This document shows, piece by piece, positions 23 to 23,122 of a stretch of DNA of 64,000 nt. A model generated the notes under the pieces. That model had not been told where the DNA came from and made no database searches. It saw only the letters and a list, made by a program, of their open reading frames with translations. The stretch lies in assembly GCA_963720565.1 (NCBI GenBank), contig CAVRFW010000001.1, positions 1 to 64,000 of the forward strand. The letters run 5' to 3'. The stretch's first letter is position 1. Each line of letters starts with the position of its first letter. Position numbers and translations under genes: made by a program. The stretch comes from Candidatus Bathyarchaeota archaeon (GTDB taxonomy: Archaea; Thermoproteota; Bathyarchaeia; Bathyarchaeales; Bathycorpusculaceae).

Positions 23-2293
23 CTATCTTTCCTCAATAATTTTTAGCAGTTTTTGCAGTATGTCAATTGCTGCTTTCTTGTCCAAGGGTTCATTCTCATT
101 TCCGCATTTTGGCGAATAAATGCAGGAAGGGCAACCGTCTTTGCATTCGCATCTGGTTATTAATTGCAAGTGTTTTTTCCCACAGTCTTTCGACATTCGC
201 ATAGAGGGTTTCCGAAATTCCGATTCCTCCTTCAAATCCGTCGTAAATGAAAATGGTGGGGTGCCCTGTGTCTGGATGCATTTGTGTTGAGAGACCGCCG
301 ATATCCCATCTGTCGCACATTGCGTAGATTGGTGACATCGCTATCATCGCGTGCTCAACTGCGTGTATTCCTCCGGCGAAATCGAGTCCCATTGCTGTCT
401 ACTTCGTTTTTGATTTCGTCAGGAATTGTGAACCACATGCCCACTGTCGAGAATTCAACGGTGGCAGATCAAGCGGTCGTCGTCCTATAATTTCATCGTA
501 TGTTTTGACTATGAACTCGCGATAATTCTCTGTTATAGTCCAATTCGCCAATTCCTACTCTAATTTCGTTTTGCTTTTCTTCCAAAACTCTTCTTCACAG
601 ATACATTTACGGTTTTCATGGCTTCCGTATGGTAGTTAACATCTTCTTTTCTGACTCGGGCAGTCAGGCTCTTCAGATTCAGATCTTCGGAGATGTAGGT
701 CTCTCCTTGATGGAGCAAGACAGCTCCTTCGTGCACTTCTTCGTAAGCCTTGGTCAGCGCTAATGTCTCCAGTATGTTTCCGTCGCAAGTGACGGTCACG
801 GTTTTGTCAGATATGCTTTCCAGGTTCACGATTTCAACTGGTCTTGCTGTTCCGGAGTAGACCCAGCCTCTGGGAGTCTTGCGAACGAGGGTTTGTTCTT
901 CTAGTGCTTTGAGACTTTCATGAAAGAGTTCTGGGAAGTATTTGCGGTCGTCTTCTGTGATTGGAAGTTCGCATGCAGCGCACATTAGGTGCCCTAAGGA
1001 AATGTAGCGGTTATGCAAGTCTATTATTGCTTGTTCGTGTGGTCTTCCGAAGAGGTCTTCTGGGTTTTTCATGAAGTATTGGTCGAGGGGGTTTTGGAAG
1101 GCTACCATGGTAACGAGGGCGTCGTTTTTGCCTCTGCCTGCTCTTCCCGCCTGTTGCCATGTTGAGATGACTGTGCCTGGATATCCGGAGATAATGACTG
1201 AGTCCAAAGAGCCTATATCGATGCCTAGTTCGAGGGCGTTTGTTGATACGACTCCGATCAGGTTCTTGTTTTTCAGTCTGTTCTCGATTTCTCTTCTTTC
1301 TTGGGGCAAGTAGCCCGCGCGGTAAGCTGTCACCGAGTCTGCCAGTCTTGGCGATTTCTTGTAGAGCTCTTCTCTTGTCCATCTTGTGATTAGTTCTGCC
1401 ATTTGCCTCGACGTGGTGAAGCATAGGGTTTGAAGGTTGTTTAGGACGTTGAGTTCCAGAAGATCTTTGGTTTCTTGGTGGGTGGAGCGGCGAATGGTGT
1501 TGGTTTCATCGATGAAGGGCGGATTCCAGAACACAAAGGTCTTTTTTCCTCGTGGGGAACCGTCGATTGAGATTATTTCATAGTCTTTCCCCGTGAGCTT
1601 CTTGGCATGTTCTTCCGGATTTGCTATGGTTGCCGAGGACAGTATGACCTTCGGATCTGAACCATAGTGATTGCAGATTCTAAATAGGCGTCTTAGGAGC
1701 ATTGCTACGTTGGATCCGAATACTCCTCGGTAAACGTGCGCTTCATCGATTACAATGAACTTTAGGTTTTGAAAAAAGTTTCTCCACTTGTAGTGCCATG
1801 GGAGATACTGGTGGAGACCATATGGGTTAGTGAGGATTATTTTAGAGTTTTCCCGTATGCTCAACCTCTGACTTGTCGGAGTATCTCCATCGTAAACATT
1901 GGGGGAGACCTTGAGACCTGTTTCCTCTTCCATTTCTTTGAGAACTTTCAGCTGGTCGTTTGTTAGGGCTTTTGTGGGATAGAGGTAGAGCGCTGTCGCT
2001 TTTGGGTCTTCGTGTATGGCTTCTAAGACTGGAATGTTGAAAGCTAAAGTCTTTCCAGAAGCGGTTGGGGTGACTATTGCGATGTTTTTTCCTTGTCGGG
2101 CTTTGTTTATCGCCTCGGCTTGGTGCGAGTAAAATCTAATTTTCTTGTCAAGGAGGCAGTTTTGAATATTCGCCGGTAAGGCCTTTTCTAGGTCGCTGTA
2201 GTTTGCCTCCTGCGACGGGATTTCTTCTAAATGCGCGATTTGCTTTTTGTAGGAGCTGCTCTTCTTGATGTTTCTGATGAATTCGTCAATCAT
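23..2293 (-). CDS. DEAH-box helicase with C-terminal DUF1998 Zn domain (MrfA/Hrq1 family), frameshifted in the 3' third
   Basis: Motifs [32 protein letters not shown] and QQAGRAGR in ORF 560-2302. The gene continues in other frames ([38 protein letters not shown]) to the stop at 23. ATGA overlap with the upstream gene. Confidence 0.9.
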
Positions 2294-3576
2294 AAGTCCC
2301 ATTCCTCGTAGAGTCGTGAGAACAAACTGCCGAGGGTGATGAGGTCTTGCCTGTTATGCTCGACAATGGCAACGAGGGGTCCAACGTTTCTGGTTTTTAG
2401 GTATGTTTCATAGAAGTGGGGCACCATTGCTCCGGGTATGTCTATGTCTCTCTGGATGTTTAGGTATTTCTCGACGGTTTCGAGGCGGCAGTTGGCGAGT
2501 TTCTTGCCCAGTGCTCTTCTTGTAAAATGGAGAACGTCAAAGTGTGGGTTATTGAAGGATGCGTCCATGCCGTAGTAGGCGAGTCTTTGTTTTATGTAAG
2601 GTATGTCGAAACTTCTTCCGTTGAAGCTAATGAGAGAAGAACTTGGTTCAAGCTGGGATATTAAAGCCCATATTGCGCTTGGCTCATCGGGAATGTCGCG
2701 AAGCAGAAACTGACTTGTACATATGCTGTTGCCTTTTGGCTTGGCTATTCCCATTAGGATAATGGGTCTTTCGGAGAGCCCAAGGGTTTCGATGTCGATT
2801 ATGGCAAAATCTTCGCAACTGCATAGGCCCGCCAAATAGTGGGCTAATGGGTGGGATTTTGGAAGGCGGTGCCACAACCAGTCTTGCGCGGATCTGACTT
2901 CTTTCGAGTCTATTAGCTGCATAAATTTCTGTGCTGGTTTGTTCCAAATCGGATGATTTGTGAGCGCTTCCACGGTCGTGTAGCCTTGCTGCCTAAGGAC
3001 CTGTTCTCTTGCAGGTCCTATGCCTGGGACTATCTTGAGGTCGGAGATTAGTAATTGTCTGCTTTTCTCGTAGCTTGCCAGGTTGAATCTGGCAACGCAA
3101 GTGGTTGAGATTGAATAGCATTCGCCCTGGTCATTCGAAATTGTGTTTCCGGGTATTGCTTCTTCAAGGCTTTTCTCTTTGAACTTGCTGACGAGTCTGC
3201 GTTCAAGTTTTAGAGCGTCGTCATATTCTGTGTTCCATATCCAGCTCTCAACTCGCGAGGTTATTGGCTCTGAGGGTTTTGCCGCGGTTTCCGTAACTAC
3301 TGTGTACTCTCTTGAGCCTGTAACTTTCTCTCTTAACCTTTGAGCCACGCGCACTAATTCAGAAGCGTTTTTCTCATCCTTTTTAGTTTTTGCGGTCCTT
3401 TCCTGCGAGATTTTATTTCCTTCAGTGCAACTTCTGTTCTTGGAGAGAGACTGCCTGCGGTCCACATCATATTTCAAAAGAAGAAATGAGCCACAAGTTT
3501 GGCAGAATCTACTCTCTTCATATTCATGGTCCGAGTGGCTTCTGCCGCATTTTCTGCAAATATAACTTATTGTCAA
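2290..3576 (-). CDS. YprB/MrfB-like DEDDh (RNase_H_2) exonuclease with N-terminal Zn ribbon and HhH motif
   Basis: DIETLG, FNGRSFDIP, HFDV, HNRQD; CRKC..CQTC; VPGIGP; translationally coupled to the DUF1998 helicase. Confidence 0.85.
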   Translation of the reverse strand: MTISYICRKCGRSHSDHEYEESRFCQTCGSFLLLKYDVDRRQSLSKNRSCTEGNKISQERTAKTKKDEKNASELVRVAQRLREKVTGSREYTVVTETAAKPSEPITSRVESWIWNTEYDDALKLERRLVSKFKEKSLEEAIPGNTISNDQGECYSISTTCVARFNLASYEKSRQLLISDLKIVPGIGPAREQVLRQQGYTTVEALTNHPIWNKPAQKFMQLIDSKEVRSAQDWLWHRLPKSHPLAHYLAGLCSCEDFAIIDIETLGLSERPIILMGIAKPKGNSICTSQFLLRDIPDEPSAIWALISQLEPSSSLISFNGRSFDIPYIKQRLAYYGMDASFNNPHFDVLHFTRRALGKKLANCRLETVEKYLNIQRDIDIPGAMVPHFYETYLKTRNVGPLVAIVEHNRQDLITLGSLFSRLYEEWDL

Positions 3577-3711: not shown

Positions 3712-4043
3712 TTAATGAAATGTTGGGCGCGCTTTCACCAGATTTCCTTTGAAACCGCTGTTTACGTCTTTGTTTGCGATGAACTCTTTAACGCTCTCAG
3801 GCTCGTCTAAATCGACATCATCTGAGAGATGATTCAGATAGAAACCGATTATTTTTACAGTTCTTTCTTCCATGCCATTGTTTTTGAGTTTCAGTAGCGT
3901 GTTGACGATTTTTCCTTCCACATTAGGATTTATATTGCGCGAGTAGAGTAATCTCGTCGTGGAGGGCTCGTAGTCTGATACGGATTATGACACTGGCCTG
4001 CGGAGCCGGAGGTCCTGGGTTCAAATCCCAGCGGGCCCGCCAC
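3712..4043 (-). pseudogene. Truncated tyrosine-recombinase/integrase N-terminal remnant overlapping the tRNA antisense
   Basis: ORF 3712-3921 (GKIVNTLLKLKNNG..DLDEPESVKEFIANK..KGNLVKA) resembles integrase N-terminal core-binding regions. The frame stays open upstream into the tRNA (DYEP). No catalytic domain is present. Confidence 0.5.
3964..4042 (+). tRNA. tRNA-Arg (anticodon GCG), CCA encoded
   Basis: GGGCTCG/CGGGCCC acceptor stem, CTGGC-CTGCGGA-GCCGG anticodon arm, CTGGG-TTCAAAT-CCCAG T arm, GCCA end. TTTATAT lies about 30 nt upstream. Confidence 0.95.
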
Positions 4044-4155: not shown

Positions 4156-5494
4156 ATGGTGGGAGATGAAGCTGTTTTGGATTCTAGGGCGTTAACCAAG
4201 ATTCAATCAGTAGCATTGATCGCTGTAATTGTTGTTGCAGCCGTAGGTGGAGGTGTAGCGTATGTTCTTTGGAGCAGACCGGCACAACTCGGACAATCGA
4301 TAAGAATAGGTGTCTGTGATGACCTCGACATGCCTAATGGAAAAGGCATCTGGCAGGCTGTCATGTTGGCTGCTGAGCAGGTTAACGCTGAAGGCGGCGT
4401 TTTAGGCAGAAACATCACCATAGTCGCCGAAGACGACGATGCCGAAACATCAAATGATATTTCTGTTGCCACAAACGCCCTGACGAAACTCATCACCGTT
4501 GACGAAGCTGACTATGTAGTAGCAAGAGCAGGATTAATGGGCTTAACCTATCAGGATATTTGTGCTGAGCACAAGAAAATCCTAATTACAGTACAAGCTA
4601 ATTTCGATGAACTCTCGCAGCGAGTGCTTGACAACTATGATAAGTACAAGTACTATTTCTCAATGATGGCAAACCAGACTTCTATGGATGACGGATGGGT
4701 TGACGCTGTTTTAACGTTGAGGAACTATACCGGTTTCAACAAAGTAGCGTATCTGGATCAAGACGCTTCGACTTGGGAGCAGTTTAGACTATGGACTTTT
4801 GGAATCTCTGTCAGAGTCTGGTTTTGACGTTGTCTACCAAAACTCAGCCACGTGGGCAACCACAGATTTCGCAAGCTACTTCGCAGCGATAGAAGCCTCA
4901 GGAGCAGAAGTGCTCCTTGCAAACATTTATGGGACAAGTGCTTCTTTCGTGAAAGAATGGTATGATCGTCAGTCGCCGTTCGTCATTTGGGGCAACGTGG
5001 GCCAAGTAGGCAGCAATTTCTGGGATTTGACCGAAGGAAAATGCGAATATACAGTTTTTGCAGGGTTGCCAGCCCTAGCGGGATACCCTTTGACCAATCA
5101 AACACTGCCGGCCAGGGAAGCTTACATTCAGAGGTGGAATGGGGAAATACTAACTTTCTCGGGAACGCTTGCTTACGATTTCGTTCGTTTCATTCTGCCC
5201 AATGCTCTCAAACAAGCAGGGACTACTGAGACGGAAGCCGTAATCAAAGCGCTAGAAAAAACGGATGTTGAGACTTGCACGGCGCGCCATTTCATGTTCA
5301 CTTCTTCACACGATGTTATGATTGGGTCGGCTGACCCGAACAAGACGAGTACGGATTATATGCTTGTTTGCACGTTCCAGTGGCAGAACGGAATCCAGGT
5401 GCCTGTGTGTCCCAAAGAGATAATGGAAGAAGCGGGAGCAACCTACAGGTACCCGCCTTGGGAAGGTCCTTGGAGCAACAAACAAACTCCCTGA
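4156..5494 (+). CDS. LivJ/LivK-type branched-chain amino acid ABC substrate-binding protein, membrane anchored, frameshifted near 4800
   Basis: N-terminal TM helix, IRIGV, LAAEQVNAEGGVLGRNITIVAEDD, AGTTETEAVIKALE. Two overlapping ORFs (4156-4827 and 4799-5494). Confidence 0.85.
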
Positions 5495-5601: not shown

Positions 5602-8600
5602 TTGAACTTGAAATTGAAGTCGGTCGTGTTATCGGAACCGGTTCTGGTTGGCAGAGAACGCGAACTTGAAGAGCTAGGCACTGTTCCTCGACTCAGCCAT
5701 CGAGGCAAAGGGATTACACGGTCTTCGTGTCAGGCGAGGCAGGAAGCGGAAAATCCAGACTGACCCGTGAATTTCTTAGTATCGCAAAGCAAAAAGGCGT
5801 TGGCGCGATGGCTGGTTGGTGCCTTGGCGACTCTCAAGTCCCATACTTCTCCTTTTATGGAAGCCTTCAACAATTACTATGCAACCTCAGGCGAGGGAGA
5901 AACAATCTTGTTGCAGCCACAGGAACAACTCGGCTTGGGAATACCTGCACAAGTCGGGATTGGAAGCGGAGAGATGGAAGTAACCTCTTGGCTCGCAGGC
6001 TCAAGACTACCGGAGAAAACAGGAGGTCTCCAAGCGCTTTCGCCTCAGGTCTGGAAGGACCAAGTTTTCGCCGCAGTTTCCAAAACACTGCACGACCATA
6101 GCAGCACAAGGCCCTGTAATCTTATTCATAGAGGACGTTCATTGGGCAGACTCCGCTTCGCTGGCGCTACTTCACTACATTTCAAGAGCAATTCACGACT
6201 CGGAACAAGTTTTGCTCTTAGCAACATTCCGTAGCGAGGAACTCACCGCCGATGCTGAGGGACATCCACACCCCTTGGCTGAAACCATGAGGTTGATGAG
6301 ACGCGAGGAGCTTTTCACAGAGATCAGACTGTCAAGCCTAAGCCAAGAAAACGTTTCAAAAATAGCCGAAAGCATGATCGGCGGAACGTTACAGCCCAAG
6401 CTTGCCGAGAAACTGACAAATGAAAGCAAGGGAAACCCGCTGTTCGTCGTTGAATCGCTGCGAATGTTACATGAACGGAAAAGCCTAATTCAAGAGGATG
6501 ATGAGTGGCGGCTTGCCGTTGACGAACTGGGGATTCCTTCAAAAATAAAAGACATTATCTTGCGTCGGCTCGCATGCTTGAAGTATGCTCAGAGGCGGGT
6601 TCTTGATGCCGCTTCAGTTATAGGCGAAAAATTCGATGTAGACCTACTCAGCGCTGTACTTGGACAAGACAGCCTTGAATTACTAGAAACACTCAACATC
6701 ATAGCTCAATCAACCTCACTCGTAAGTGTGGAAGGCAACTTTTATCATTTCTATCATGCAAAGTTCCAAGAGGCTCTATACGACGAGGTCTCAACACCTC
6801 TGAAGCGAGGATACCACGCTCGGATAGCTGAAAAACTTGAAAAAACAGACGGCGTAGGCAAACCCTTACCCCTTCGCAGACCTAGCCCACCACTATTCCG
6901 AGGCGGGGAACACTGAAAAAGCACTTTACTACGCTATGGAAGCAGGCAAGGATGCACTGAAAAAGAGCAGCAATGCACAAGCCATCAAACACTTCACGTA
7001 TGCTTTACACGCAGTCGGCACCGACCCTGAACGTCGCAGAGAGCAGGCTGTGGCACTACTAGGTTTGGGGGATGCTTATGCACAGAGCGGGCTTTCTCTG
7101 AGAGCTCTGCAAACATTTGAGCAACTCATAGAAAATACATCCGGCGCGGAGAAATTTCAGGCAATACTAAGAGCCGCTTCCGCCACATATCTCCATGGGG
7201 ACGTCATTCGCTTAGCCAAATTACTTGATCAAGCCCAGGAATATGTAGGGTCTGATCGTTTAGGAATGGCGCACATTTTCGGACTAAGAGCAGCTCTTGG
7301 AGGATTGAGAGGTGACGTCTCCTATGCTGAAAAATATGTAAAAAAAGCGACCCAAATCCTTGAAGAAGAATACATGTTGCAGGAAATGCCTCGCGCACTA
7401 GGCGGGGGGTTTGGACGAGCTCTCCAAGGTAAGTTGGAGACTGCTGTAGCTGAAGGGCTGCTTTGTATAGCGATTTGTGATGATTTGAAAGATTATCGAA
7501 CTCGACTAGAAAACTGCAACATGGTAGGTCAAACCTTCGGACTATGTGGTCTCTTCCCGGAAGAAGAACAGATGTTTAAGAAAGGGCTTCAAATTGAAGA
7601 TGACCTAAAACTTGGGTTACTGCGGGACATAAGCCAGATTTATGTAAGTTGGTCGATTATTCTGGGTCTCCAAGGTAAGCCTGAAGAATCGTTGACCAAG
7701 GCTTTGAAAGCAATTGAGATTGCTGAAAAAACCGATTCAGCCTTTGCCCAAGGCAATGCATATGCAAGAGCAACGATGGAATACGTATTCCTCAATAATA
7801 TGGCTGAAGCTGACAAATACTTCCAGAAACTGGTGAACCTTCCACCTCAAACATTGGAAAGCGGATGGGTAGGACTCAATAATGTGAAAGCAATATACTA
7901 CGCAGCAAAAGGTCAAATGCGCCAAGCCATTCAGTGCGCTAATGAATATGTAGCCTCTGCTAAGAGCTACCGCTTATCTCCCAATGAGCCGGGAAGCCCA
8001 TTAGTTGAGGCGAATATCAATCTAGTGAATTCTCTAATGCATGCTGCGTTGGGAAAGGAAGACGAGGCGCAAGAAGAACGGGATGAAGCATTCAGAATCC
8101 TCAAGGATGCCCAAAAACGATTCGAACATGTTAACCTACGCCCAAACCTAATGACATTAGCACGGGTGAAAGTAGACCAAACCTTTGACGCCCGGCTTGA
8201 CTTGATAAACGTTTCCAGAGCCCATGGCACGCTGGTTACAATTAAGGGTATGCTGCCAAGAGATCTCGAAGTCATCAAAACCCCACCGGATTGCTCAATC
8301 GAAGGTGCAGAGTTGCGGCTTAAAGAAAGCACGTTCGAACCTTTCTCCGTTAAGACTCTCACACTGGCTTTCAAGGCAACCAAACCATGCGCCGTTACTT
8401 TGAATCCAGAGATCGCATACATAGATGATTTGGGTCAAACGAAAACATCCCGTTCCAGACCAATAACCATAATCGTTTCACCTGCTGATCTGACCTATGA
8501 GATACTGCCTGGAAGAATATCCACGGGTTCAGCAGAGCTAGACAAGCCACTACTGGGAGGGATACCTGAAAAATACGCGGTTATTCTTTCTTCCCCTTCC

Positions 8601-9170
8601 TGCAACGAAAAAGAACTAATCGTGAAGAATTTCCTCGAAACAGGAGCTGAAAGAGGCGAAACAACCTTTTTCGTAACAACCGAAGCAGGCAAAATGACAG
8701 ATTTGGCTGGAAGCCACCAACAGAACTTTTTCCTTTTTGTCTGTAACCCACAAGCCGACGCCATGGTTCCTAATTTGCCCAACATATACAAACTGAAAAG
8801 CATAGAGAACCTGACAGAGATAGATATTGCACTAAATAGGGCTTTCAAAACCTTAAATCAAGCCAGTACAAACCCCAGAAGAATCTGCCTAGACATAGTC
8901 TCTGATGCCTTGCTGCAGCATCACGCAGTTACGACGAGAAGATGGCTGAGCGCACTTCTTCCAACCTTGAAATCAAAGGGCTTCACAATCTTCGCGATTA
9001 TCGATCCGCTCATTTCGCCGGAAGAGGTTCCAGCAATCAACGGCTTATTCGACGGAGAAATCAAAATCACAGAAAAAGGCCTGGGAAGAACCCTGAGAGT
9101 TAGAAAACTTGCCAACCAGAAATACTTGGAAAACGAGTTAGCCCTCACAAAAGAAAGTCTATCCACATAG
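5602..9170 (+). CDS. STAND (AAA_16-type) ATPase-TPR-Ig-like-degenerate KaiC/RAD55 multidomain protein, about 4 frameshifts
   Basis: LVGRERELEEL, Walker A GEAGSGKS, Walker B EDVHWAD (shifted frame), GNPLF, IPSKIKDIILRRL, TPR-like helices, a beta-rich segment, then RISTGSAELDKPLLGGIP. Confidence 0.8.
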
Positions 9171-9223
9171 GACAAGGACGAACAAAAACGCGGATTCAGA
9201 GACAGAAAAAGAGGGGTTGTGCG

Positions 9224-9267
9224 GGTGACATCTCCACACGGGGCGGGGTCCAAATTCCAGCGGACCA
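9224..9267 (+). mobile_element. Degenerate tRNA-3'-like att scar resembling the tRNA-Arg T-arm/acceptor end
   Basis: CGGGGTCCAAATTCCAGCGGACC vs tRNA CTGGGTTCAAATCCCAGCGGGCC (19/23 identical), preceded by GGTGACATC. Confidence 0.5.
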
Positions 9268-9318: not shown

Positions 9319-9822
9319 TTATCGCGAATCCAACCTTGCCTGAACCTCAGCAGCGTTCAAACGCTTCAAATCTTCCCTGACAAACCTAGCCTCATCACAC
9401 TCCACATCAACCGCCGGAACAGAAACACACTGCTTGACCAGCGTGTAACCAAAAGCTCCTCCAGGACGCAGCTTAAGCCGCGTCAACTTCTTCTCAGCAA
9501 CAAGCCTCCTCAAAGCCGGATAAACAATACTCCTCGAAAGCCCCAGATCCACCTCAACCTCACCCGCCTTGAAAAGCCTCTTCCCCACAGCATAATGCAA
9601 AATCTTCGCTACGGTCTCCTTGGACGCCTGATTCTGCCAAGAAGGCGCAATATTGATAGAAGTGAGCTTGCCCAGTTGGTCCGCAACAGATGCCTCCAAA
9701 TGCTTAAGCTCACCGTAGAACTGCTGCAGCTCAGACTCGCTCAGCTCCCTCGACACATCCACCCCGAAAAAGGGAAAACGCAACACAATACTATACAAGA
9801 CTTTTCTGATAACCAAACTCAC
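9319..9822 (-). CDS. Winged-helix DNA-binding protein, probably from a mobile element
   Basis: FKAGEVEVDLGLSRSIVYPALRRLVAEKKL wHTH pattern, located between the att-like scars. Confidence 0.6.
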   Translation of the reverse strand: MSLVIRKVLYSIVLRFPFFGVDVSRELSESELQQFYGELKHLEASVADQLGKLTSINIAPSWQNQASKETVAKILHYAVGKRLFKAGEVEVDLGLSRSIVYPALRRLVAEKKLTRLKLRPGGAFGYTLVKQCVSVPAVDVECDEARFVREDLKRLNAAEVQARLDSR

Positions 9823-9870: not shown

Positions 9871-10150
9871 TCAGGAAACGTAGCCTTTACCTCCCTCCCC
9901 AACAGGAACAGGTTGTTCGCCTTCACCGCTAAGACCACAGAGCCGATCCAACGCACTGCTCAAGCTTTCGGACATAATACCATGTATGTTGGCGGCTCAA
10001 ACCTATGATTCGCCCAGCCCTTGTCGGATAGTCCCCGACTGCTATTCTCAGCAGAAGTGGAAGAACCCATCTGCGAACAGTCCCAGTGTCAAATTTTACT
10101 TTATACTTTGAACCGCAAACATTTGTACTCCCGCCCAAAACCCCAGTCAA
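9871..10150 (-). pseudogene. Internally deleted wHTH (MarR-like/replication-type) gene remnant
   Basis: VLPLLLRIAVGDYPTRAGRIIGLSRQHTWYYVRKLE (HTH) breaks off near 9950. A plausible C-terminus (LDRLCGLSGE..GKGYVS*) follows in another frame. Confidence 0.45.
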
Positions 10151-10255
10151 CAGCCAGCCTCCAAAGGCAAAATTAAGGTCTGGCTCAGCATCCAACGAAC
10201 ATACAAAGAATTTTATCCATTGCCCTCGATACATGTATTGTGGAATTTCACAAAG

Positions 10256-10519
10256 ATGAAAACGAAGATTACACTTCTCATAACTGTAACCAGTCTGGTC
10301 GTCTTGCTTATGCTCTGGGCGCCATGGATCACAGATGACTACGCCATCAACCAAGTAGTTGAAAAGCTTGGAGGACCCGATGCCCACTTCAATTACCTGG
10401 GCGAAGACACGGTCGTTAAAGACATTGCCAAACAGGTCAGCTGGCTTCCCTTCGGCAGATACGTCACTTTTCCAGGCGAAGCAGGCTGGTTCGTGACCTT
10501 CTATGGCAGCGCACTTTAG
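10256..10519 (+). CDS. Small membrane-anchored hypothetical protein
   Basis: MKTKITLLITVTSLVVLLMLWAPW signal/TM segment followed by protein-like composition. Confidence 0.6.
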   Translation: MKTKITLLITVTSLVVLLMLWAPWITDDYAINQVVEKLGGPDAHFNYLGEDTVVKDIAKQVSWLPFGRYVTFPGEAGWFVTFYGSAL

Positions 10520-10617
10520 ATGCAAACGCGTAATATCTCCTGCCAAACATTTCACTCGGACAACAAAAGATCCCCAACAAAAAAAGGGGAAGAAAGCTGC
10601 GAAGAAACGATCTGAGA

Positions 10618-10665
10618 GGTGACATCGCCTGCCTGGTGAGGGTTCAAATCCCACTCCCGGCGCCA
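10618..10665 (+). mobile_element. tRNA 3'-end fragment (att-like; TCCCGGC-G-CCA end, Ser-like)
   Basis: GAGGGTTCAAATCCCACTCCCGGCGCCA followed by TTTT, with no 5' half of a tRNA upstream. Preceded by GGTGACATC. Confidence 0.7.
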
Positions 10666-10824
10666 TTTTCTAGGCGAAATTTAATTTTTTTTTACGAAAT
10701 AAGTCTGTTCAAAATAATTTTGAAGGGTTTCAACAATTGAGTGAATTTGATTGCCAATTTCTACTATTAAAAAAGTAGAGTGGCAAGCAGGTCTAGCCTT
10801 ATGGTGCGCGCTGTTGCTTTCTTA

Positions 10825-22425: not shown

Positions 22426-23122
22426 ATGAAACAAACCTCTGTCGCGTCAGTTGTTGAAGCAGTTGACCTAAAAAAAACATATATGCTAGGAAAAATTCCC
22501 GTGGAAGCCTTGCGCGGGGTAAACCTCAGAGTCGAAAGCGGAGACTTCTTGTCTATCCTCGGTCCGTCAGGAAGCGGAAAATCCACGCTCCTCAACTTGA
22601 TTGGTGCCTTGGATAAGCCGACTTCAGGCAAACTGGCTATTGACGGCAGTAGAGGTCTCTACGTTAAGCGAAAACCAATTAGCTGAATTAAGGCTTCGAA
22701 TCGGTTTTGTTTTTCAATTCTTCAACCTTATTCCACGGTTCACGGCAAGAGACAATGTGGAGTTATCTATGTCAATCAAAGGTAAGAGCATGGATGAAAG
22801 AAGGAAACGTGCAGAAGAGTTGCTGGAAATTGTGGGTTTGAAAGACCGGATGAATCACAAGCCAGCTGAGCTAAGTGGGGGGCAGCAGCAACGTGTGGCA
22901 ATAGCAAGAGCTTTGGCGAATGATCCTCGCTTTCTGTTGATGGATGAACCCACGGGCAACATAGACTCAAAAACGGCACGTGAAGTCCTTAACTTAATCC
23001 AGAGTATCAACGCGAAAGGAGTTACGATAATTATGGTTACGCATGATCAACGTTTGGCTCTTGAAGGTAAAAGAACAGTGCAGATGTTTGACGGCGTGAT
23101 TACATCTGATCTGGAGAATTAG
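22426..23122 (+). CDS. MacB/LolD-type ABC ATP-binding protein, frameshift near 22645
   Basis: [39 protein letters not shown]. Confidence 0.9.

Follow-up and report, generated by a model that had tools for sequence, protein, structure and literature searches.

A frame-broken STAND-TPR-Ig gene with an inactivated KaiC domain at its end: most likely a new wiring of the proposed archaeal KaiC hub

How does a STAND sensor pass on its signal when it ends in a KaiC-like domain that has lost its nucleotide-binding motif? The question is raised by a gene at positions 5602-9170 of a 64,000-nucleotide stretch of Candidatus Bathyarchaeota archaeon DNA (the window: positions 1 to 64,000 of contig CAVRFW010000001.1, assembly GCA_963720565.1), in which a STAND NTPase of the AAA_16 kind, a TPR array, an Ig-like beta-sandwich and a KaiC-fold domain without P-loop (iKaiC) follow one another. 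Archaeal signal processing is poorly understood, and the proposal of a KaiC hub has almost no experimental footing. The gene is most likely a frame-broken copy of a new wiring of this proposed hub, rather than a proven immune gene, and with a probability of about one half we read its product as a STAND switch of the MalT-like (AAA_16) kind whose iKaiC output docks on canonical KaiC. The source genome is called G000 below and its contigs C1 and so on, the window being the start of C1; P-numbers denote metagenome proteins, L-numbers the 77 genomic loci fetched and L118, and G001-G004 genomes of the same genus.

The translation passes through the gene from frame 1 by way of frames 2, 3, 1 and 2 to frame 3, and the start codon is probably the TTG at 5614. 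GEAGSGKS is found in frame 3, EDVHWAD and GNPLF in frame 2, and an intact open reading frame (ORF) of 744 residues, 6936-9170, carries RISTG..LD..LLGGIP and then SPSCNEK; an earlier sequence-only reading had named these motifs, and all are present in the translations. The STAND-TPR switch that it proposed is supported by AAA_16 and TPR_12 matches, its Ig-like domain and its KaiC/RAD55 fold with degenerate Walker A are borne out by the models and matches given below, and the nuclease, cyclase and LuxR effectors that it had found lacking were likewise not found by Pfam or NCBIfam in the window ORFs and P0002. The latter is an uninterrupted metagenome protein of 1183 residues, 90% identical to the window protein. 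An HTH family of the type at the C-terminus of MalT or LAL-type LuxR proteins was absent from P0002 and from the window ORF. The domain order is unchanged in P0003, a metagenome protein of 1167 residues that is 31% identical.

AAA_16 reaches 88 bits on P0002 (cut-off 32.6) and only 32.0 and 23.1 bits on the N-terminal fragments in the window, low values that arise because the gene is cut. Across 16 full-length members, G39, G42, G44 and K45 of the Walker A motif are invariant, as are D173, W176 and D178 of the Walker B and HWAD-type motif, which reads VILFIEDVHWAD. In NCBIfam the central STAND region of the TOMM kinase/cyclase fusion (TOMM_kin_cyc) is matched at E 5e-29; beyond the P-loop domain the GNPLF motif is present, and NB-ARC is matched in the relative P0005 only (30.5 bits, cut-off 23.5). 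Profile comparison with solved structures points to TPR proteins and KaiC, with no STAND NTPase among the best 60 of 97 matches; the TPR sensor of PH0952 is matched at E 6e-9. PH0952 of Pyrococcus horikoshii (PDB 6mfv) is described as a MalT-like STAND regulator with a TPR/SUPR sensor (PMC6468293). Such MalT-like regulators and the window protein both combine a module of the AAA_16 type, for nucleotide binding and oligomerisation, with a sensor of TPRs; unlike MalT, the window protein is without a DNA-binding effector and ends in the iKaiC domain after an Ig-like sandwich.

Modelled alone with AlphaFold2 (AF2), the Ig segment folds into 11 strands at a pLDDT of 86, and its Foldseek matches are the VesB Ig domain, TRAP subunits, PapD-like domains and pilin domains, with query-normalised TM of at most 0.69; the DUF11/CARDB match from the ESM Atlas, at 0.88, is a lead only. 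For the C-terminal 315 residues a 23-row alignment gave a model of pLDDT 89, in which residues 95-315 match best PH0284 (2dr3, E 9e-12, target-normalised TM 0.75), followed by Sso2452 (2w0m) and then KaiC CI; this Foldseek comparison, which had been fixed beforehand as the check on the C-terminal end, thus found a RecA/KaiC fold. At the level of sequence, PF06745 (KaiC) scores 33.0 bits against a cut-off of 26.6 over residues 529-725 of the 744-residue ORF, and the only PDB match of P0002 is 2w0m, at E 7e-5. PH0284 and Sso2452 are single-domain KaiC-like ATPases that keep their Walker A, whereas iKaiC has sPSxDE[RK] in its place in 23 of 23 aligned family members (alignment A1), with the Glu invariant. 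In the numbering of A1, N187, S227, D228, W241, F254 and T255 are likewise invariant, and E129 is strictly conserved. By sequence and predicted structure, then, the C-terminal domain is a KaiC/RecA fold with a dead P-loop and falls under the definition of iKaiC given in PMC5847659, namely a KaiC-family domain with an inactivated nucleotide-binding site that is fused to signalling domains. To judge from these residues, the output domain cannot be an ATPase, and the usual binding of ATP would be lost.

A search with the C-terminal module returned 575 cluster representatives at E<=1e-3, of which 209 remain when the threshold is tightened to E<=1e-30, and 73 of the 77 fetched loci are titled Bathyarchaeia or Bathyarchaeota. 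Among 41 genomes of the order, iKaiC is present in 10, and G000 has the most, with 14 matches as compared with 1-6 in the other nine. About 10 of its copies are full-length paralogs, the number that the sequence-only reading had wished to see established. Within the genus, the 744-residue C-terminal query at E<=1e-20 has no match in G001 and G003, one partial match in G002 and one weak match in G004 (7e-21, 31% identity). Foreign loci hold 27 STAND-type genes as single ORFs of 1163-1239 residues, at 23 loci, and two broken ones (L023, L056). Over 43 full-length members the mean column identity is 0.51 in the NTPase, 0.32 in the TPR, 0.33 in the Ig and 0.55 in the iKaiC part, so that the TPR region, whose variability had also been in question, is the least conserved. 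Conserved NTPase and iKaiC ends around a variable TPR-Ig middle fit a set of sensors that differ in specificity and have one common output.

Other proteins carry the same end. When 63 of 150 listed matches were scanned with Pfam, a choice that favoured those matching only the KaiC part, iKaiC was found C-terminal to AAA_16-TPR, TPR alone, HTH_45, FIST, Peptidase_C11, NYN, Sa_NUDIX, RyR, PocR with an aminotransferase, ATP-grasp, a beta-propeller and nSTAND1; in P0112 it has a protein-kinase domain (Pkinase) on one side and AAA_16-TPR on the other, and L074 has two iKaiC domains in tandem, like two-domain KaiC. G000 itself contains no iKaiC-effector fusion. A subfamily of about 1305 residues (L034, L039-L043, L045-L053 and others) has only the Ig-iKaiC end in common with the window protein, its N-terminal part of about 1000 residues being without Pfam match, and this is the form most often convergent with a KaiC gene. 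Conversely, in P0004-P0007, of about 1000-1070 residues, the NTPase, TPR and Ig parts are common and the C-terminal domain differs; it has no Pfam match and by eye may be a winged helix, in which case the output end would be exchangeable.

The iKaiC domains and the proposal of KaiC as a 'signal transduction hub' in archaea reportedly go back to Makarova, Galperin and Koonin, in mBio in 2017. The present family resembles that proposal: in both, a KaiC fold without P-loop is fused to input or output domains, and a working ATPase of the KaiC type is linked to it. Our literature search, which did not cover the 2017 hub proposal, found no paper describing a STAND-TPR-iKaiC fusion, and the accessible parts of two sources that list partners of the iKaiC/KaiC hub name REC, HalOD1 and MEDS and leave the STAND-TPR-Ig fusion and the Bathyarchaeia expansion unlisted (PMC5847659, PMC13700489). 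The idea of a KaiC hub has thus already been proposed, and the apparent novelty lies in the STAND-TPR-Ig input and in its cassette-like expansion.

A canonical single-domain KaiC is encoded within the 8-kb flanks of 30 of the 77 loci. These neighbours are 248-280 residues long, score about 200 bits against PF06745 and have GGPGxGKT intact; 16 of 31 gaps between iKaiC and KaiC genes are of 126 nt or less, mostly in convergent orientation. The orthologue in G000, of 251 residues at C11:38882-39634, is single-copy and is 66-78% identical to 13 of 15 aligned neighbours, and 40-45% identical to those at L074 and L090. Nine of the 41 genomes of the order contain a KaiC orthologue (at least 280 bits): nine of the ten iKaiC-positive genomes and none of the 31 iKaiC-negative ones, and the KaiC/iKaiC-positive genomes span four families. 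These counts lend comparative support, from gene content and order, to the docking onto KaiC partners that the sequence-only reading had suggested, and such close ties to one KaiC ATPase, in gene neighbourhood and in occurrence, would make docking there the most economical mechanism. Beside the KaiC gene of G000 itself, the stretch C11:37470-42708 (L099) holds two short iKaiC C-terminal remnants that flank it, together with the gene of a small TPR protein and another KaiC-like gene, which a frameshift splits; the stretch looks like a degraded KaiC-iKaiC neighbourhood.

Under the mechanism that we favour, the gene product would be a cytoplasmic, ligand-gated STAND switch. The variable TPR and Ig region would sense the signal, the NTPase module would exchange its nucleotide and then oligomerise, and the C-terminal iKaiC would be a docking subunit for the single canonical KaiC ATPase of G000, where it might enter or cap the KaiC ring or modulate the ATPase/autokinase cycle of KaiC. 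The iKaiC plug would likewise sit on input proteins (FIST, PocR) and on output proteins (HTH_45, NYN, Peptidase_C11, Sa_NUDIX, kinase), and since it is carried by such varied inputs and outputs, KaiC would be a shared hub. The family offers a concrete and testable wiring, in which a nucleotide-gated STAND switch has a dead KaiC subunit as its only output; gene order and the pattern of occurrence across genomes link this switch to a single-copy KaiC in an abundant uncultured lineage of sediments and wetlands. STAND sensors could, on this account, signal by means other than a DNA-binding or enzymatic effector, and if docking is true, each of the dozen further iKaiC fusions can be read as an input or an output of one KaiC hub.

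As for the signal, the neighbouring genes point to transport. Each of the eight PF13458 (Peripla_BP_6) solute-binding protein genes of G000 has an iKaiC paralog no further than 2 kb away, and four of them, like the one in the window, stand directly upstream of it and in its orientation. In other Bathyarchaeia an MFS_1 gene adjoins 8 of the 27 foreign STAND-type genes, and also L118; L019 contains two successive STAND-MFS pairs. In the mal regulon, too, transporter genes adjoin the MalT-type regulator. Orphan solute-binding proteins in G000 and MFS neighbours elsewhere would suggest signalling linked to solutes or nutrients rather than virus defence. Genes of the solute-binding family were seen at C1:4156-5494, C5:342151-343308, C5:185923-186870, C4:48034-50111, C4:54070-55497, C4:59741-60950 and C4:66203-67154, and permease or ATPase genes are not next to any of those in G000. 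Co-duplication of solute-binding protein and STAND genes as one unit is neither supported nor excluded by their uncorrelated identities, and orthologous synteny of L118 by way of its MFS gene was rejected, this MFS being only 33% identical to the one beside the G000 paralog at C5:60469.

Several observations weigh against this mechanism. No KaiC gene lies beside the window locus; among the STAND-type loci a KaiC neighbour occurs only at L032, L033 and L035, and most of the adjacencies belong to the subfamily of about 1305 residues and to a short HTH_45 subfamily. The count of co-occurrence overstates the evidence because related genomes are not independent. No solute-binding protein gene adjoins any of the 77 foreign loci, so that this pairing was seen only in G000, and there the pairwise identities of the solute-binding and STAND proteins do not co-vary (rho 0.02, n=10). 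Co-folding of the window iKaiC with the KaiC of G000 gave a score of 0.32, as compared with 0.00 for the best of three controls, in runs with custom alignments that agree in at least 97% of contacts and with partner pLDDT of at least 78. Of 157 solved complexes 116 reach the co-fold mark, as do 2 of 215 mismatched pairs; only 18 of the 157 reach it with a score of 0.60 or less, and so do both mismatched pairs that passed. A pass in the range of 0.32 is more often wrong than right unless the pairing is likely beforehand. It may also reflect mere likeness, because KaiC rings are among the solved structures, and the predicted complex gives weak support for an iKaiC-KaiC pair. One might then suppose that iKaiC does not touch KaiC at all and is a self-associating or ligand-binding module, for example one that drives STAND clustering by forming a ring or that binds a nucleotide-like messenger by its conserved acidic loop, the linkage with KaiC being co-regulation only. 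The strictly conserved residues outside the P-loop, E129, N187, S227, D228 and W241, would suit a retained pocket, and the tandem domains of L074 and the low complex score are in keeping with such a module. However, convergent adjacency with gaps of at most 126 nt at 16 loci and co-occurrence in 9 of 10 as opposed to 0 of 31 genomes are typical of obligate partners, and the solved rings of PH0284 and KaiC are built of RecA-fold subunits of this clade set side by side, so that we consider the absence of contact quite unlikely.

The sequence-only reading had regarded the gene as a candidate immune system, and an antiviral or conflict NLR-like sensor is the alternative that this suggests: the TPR-Ig region would recognise a viral product, and the oligomerised iKaiC would recruit the iKaiC-tagged NYN RNase, C11 protease or NUDIX, or poison KaiC, leading to dormancy or death. 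In antiviral STAND/NLR proteins such as Avs and bNACHT, effector-associated domains do act by adaptor logic, and the present family is like them in its STAND core, its variable repeat sensor between conserved ends, its lineage-specific expansion in G000 and a small module common to sensors and effectors. The patchy distribution even inside the genus, the tRNA-adjacent cassettes with tRNA-like flanking repeats and the many broken copies would also suit such a role, and fusions of iKaiC to NYN, C11 protease and Sa_NUDIX fit a conflict system equally well, which is a further point against the KaiC-docking switch. In contrast to Avs and bNACHT, the window family is without a match in PADLOC (2023), without an in-protein effector and without defence neighbours. 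PADLOC-DB 2.0 gave no meaningful match for P0002, P0003, P0004, P0040 or the window ORF; the best scores were those of BrxD, where E was 0.0011 (16 bits) and the match was limited to the P-loop, and of a TPR model (E 2.6e-5), and the window ORF matched nothing. Pfam families of 140 neighbour ORFs of the G000 paralogs are those of MCM, GINS, shikimate enzymes, tRNA synthetases, the thermosome/chaperonin, TBP and transporters, with no restriction, CRISPR or abortive-infection gene save ABC-ATPase cross-hits (by Pfam; PADLOC was not applied to these ORFs), and the 38 immediate neighbours at foreign loci are MFS transporters and metabolic genes, none of defence type. By Pfam, the association with a defence island that had been looked for was thus absent from both sets, G000 lacks an iKaiC-effector fusion, and the immune role is unlikely. 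A bolder view takes iKaiC as the archaeal counterpart of death-fold adaptors, an ATP-blind, ring-forming KaiC subunit. Sensors such as STAND-TPR-Ig, FIST and PocR proteins would by its means be assembled on one KaiC hexamer with executioners, namely the NYN RNase, C11 protease, NUDIX, kinase and HTH proteins, and the STAND-iKaiC genes of this lineage would be mobile, tRNA-targeted cassettes that diversify rapidly, an NLR-like repertoire for surveillance wired through a clock-type ATPase; this we regard as improbable.

Compared with the intact DNA of L118 (91% nucleotide identity), the gene in the window has insertions of one nucleotide at 5677, 5713, 5849 and 6873 and a deletion of two at 6092, with no further indel in the 3.55 kb aligned; all five fall in the first 1.3 kb, and the next 2.3 kb are clean. 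On the frame of the orthologue, the broken part has a dN/dS of 0.17, as against 0.275 for the rest, and no stops. Five independent neutral indels should bring many neutral substitutions and downstream lesions with them, and the breaks are therefore probably consensus errors or very recent lesions rather than old decay. The assembly of G000 (2.09 Mb, 13 contigs, 88.8% complete) is itself prone to such breaks: among 89 ordinary genes that have a well-covered homologue (94.6 kb), 12, or about 13%, change frame once or twice, 13 times in all, so that its gene calls need caution, and two further genes of the window are split, that of the solute-binding protein and that of an ABC ATPase (22601-22686). 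Contigs of four other wetland or freshwater runs carry compensating indels at or beside 5702/5714, 5849-5856 and 6091-6096, and none near 5677 or 6873 in the printed table; when the source reads were sought in public runs, no run contained more than 22% of the sampled words. Counting overlaps between ORFs of one strand without recourse to homologues (192 pairs) proved too unspecific for frameshifts and was replaced by the homologue-based count, and programmed frameshifting or an alternative genetic code was dropped, as no motif is common to the five breaks and the orthologues are read without interruption.

True pseudogenes, in a recently expanded family that is decaying and has no present function in this organism, are the other explanation of these breaks, and one that we hold to be possible though clearly the less probable. 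The rate of breakage, about five-fold over the background of G000, counts in its favour and against a working switch: some 23-26 frame changes occur in about 35 kb of the family (0.65-0.73 per kb) as compared with 0.14 per kb, only one of ten full-length paralogs is intact (C5:182115-185645, an uninterrupted ORF of 1177 residues) where about six would be expected (P about 0.001), and the copies on C6, C10 and C12 have many stops inside their matches. The contigs of relatives carry an indel at 6487 and a compensating pair at 7877/7883 that match no break in the window. Breakage above the background keeps real decay in this lineage plausible, and the split solute-binding protein gene next door and the intactness of the foreign copies, 27 as opposed to 2 broken, agree with it. 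On the other side stand the frame-broken ordinary conserved genes, which argue for an error-prone consensus, the low dN/dS without stops, hardly the company of five independent neutral indels, and the clustering of these indels in 1.3 kb; moreover, 6 kb or less separates many of the copies from a contig end, and the heavily shifted L056 comes from an assembly whose contig names, the only indication here, are in a style unlike that of short-read assemblies.

The features of the locus are collected in Table 1.

Table 1. Coordinates of the gene, its modules and the flanking features in the window.
Feature	Position	Strand	Evidence and remarks
tRNA-Arg(GCG), upstream cassette border	3964..4042	+	ARAGORN; Rfam tRNA 55.2 bits
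Membrane-anchored solute-binding protein gene (Peripla_BP_6)	4156..5494	+	Two frames, split near 4799-4827; PF13458 positions 2-145 and 158-328
STAND-TPR-Ig-iKaiC gene	5602..9170	+	About 1,185 codons, frame broken five times; intact orthologues P0002, L118
STAND NTPase module (GEAGSGKS as P-loop, ..FIEDVHWAD as Walker B, GNPLF of a putative helical arm)	5614..6938	+	AAA_16 pieces; all five indels here
TPR array, the family's most variable part	6939..8147	+	TPR_12 35.7 bits (Pfam cut-off 30.1); profile matches to LGN/Pins and PH0952
Ig-like beta-sandwich (DUF11/CARDB-like)	8148..8510	+	AF2 model and Foldseek
iKaiC: KaiC/RecA-fold domain, P-loop replaced by SPSCNEK (family consensus sPSxDE[RK])	8511..9167	+	PF06745, Foldseek, alignment A1
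tRNA-3'-end-like repeat (T-arm and acceptor strand)	9213..9263	+	43 nt past the stop codon; 92% identity over 51 nt to C9:500802-500871
Second tRNA-3'-end-like fragment	10640..10665	+	T-arm identical to tRNA-Arg, acceptor strand like tRNA-Ser

The island at a tRNA that had been suggested earlier holds good within G000 as far as the tRNA is concerned: a tRNA gene lies within 2.5 kb of six of the ten paralogs, as compared with a random mean of 1.0 (P 0.00025), and foreign loci do not show this proximity. Behind the gene, the repeat belongs to an element of 50-70 nt in whose 3' part the T-arm and acceptor strand of tRNA-Pro/Arg are copied, with a conserved run of A and a G-rich stretch in front of that part. 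Besides the C9 copy, 1.3 kb behind the C9 paralog, it recurs at C10:44782-44849 and in part at C4:59488-59510, behind the short C4 copy; it could be the remnant of an attachment site or a small tRNA-like RNA. No integrase was seen in the context of the locus, and full tRNA genes at 9246 or 10640 were rejected, as neither ARAGORN with introns allowed nor Rfam at E<=1 found any. The second fragment sits at the edge of a variable region, ahead of a Nuo-like operon. A NuoN orthologue was found in G002, G003 and G004, and its flanks there share nothing with positions 1-10.8 kb of the window, which marks a variable region beside the conserved operon and does not define the ends of an island.

Two ORFs on the minus strand, 9319-9822 and 9929-10666, are convergent with the STAND gene and have no Pfam family; the latter is doubtful because its N-terminal part corresponds to the tRNA-like fragment read in reverse. 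At the other end of the window, 560-3576 on the minus strand encode a DEAD/Hrq1-like helicase and then an RNase_H_2-family (YprB-like) protein. Of the pair, the protein searched was the RNase_H_2-like one, which is without a match at E<=1e-30 in the four genomes of the same genus, and the variable region may therefore extend to the start of the contig.

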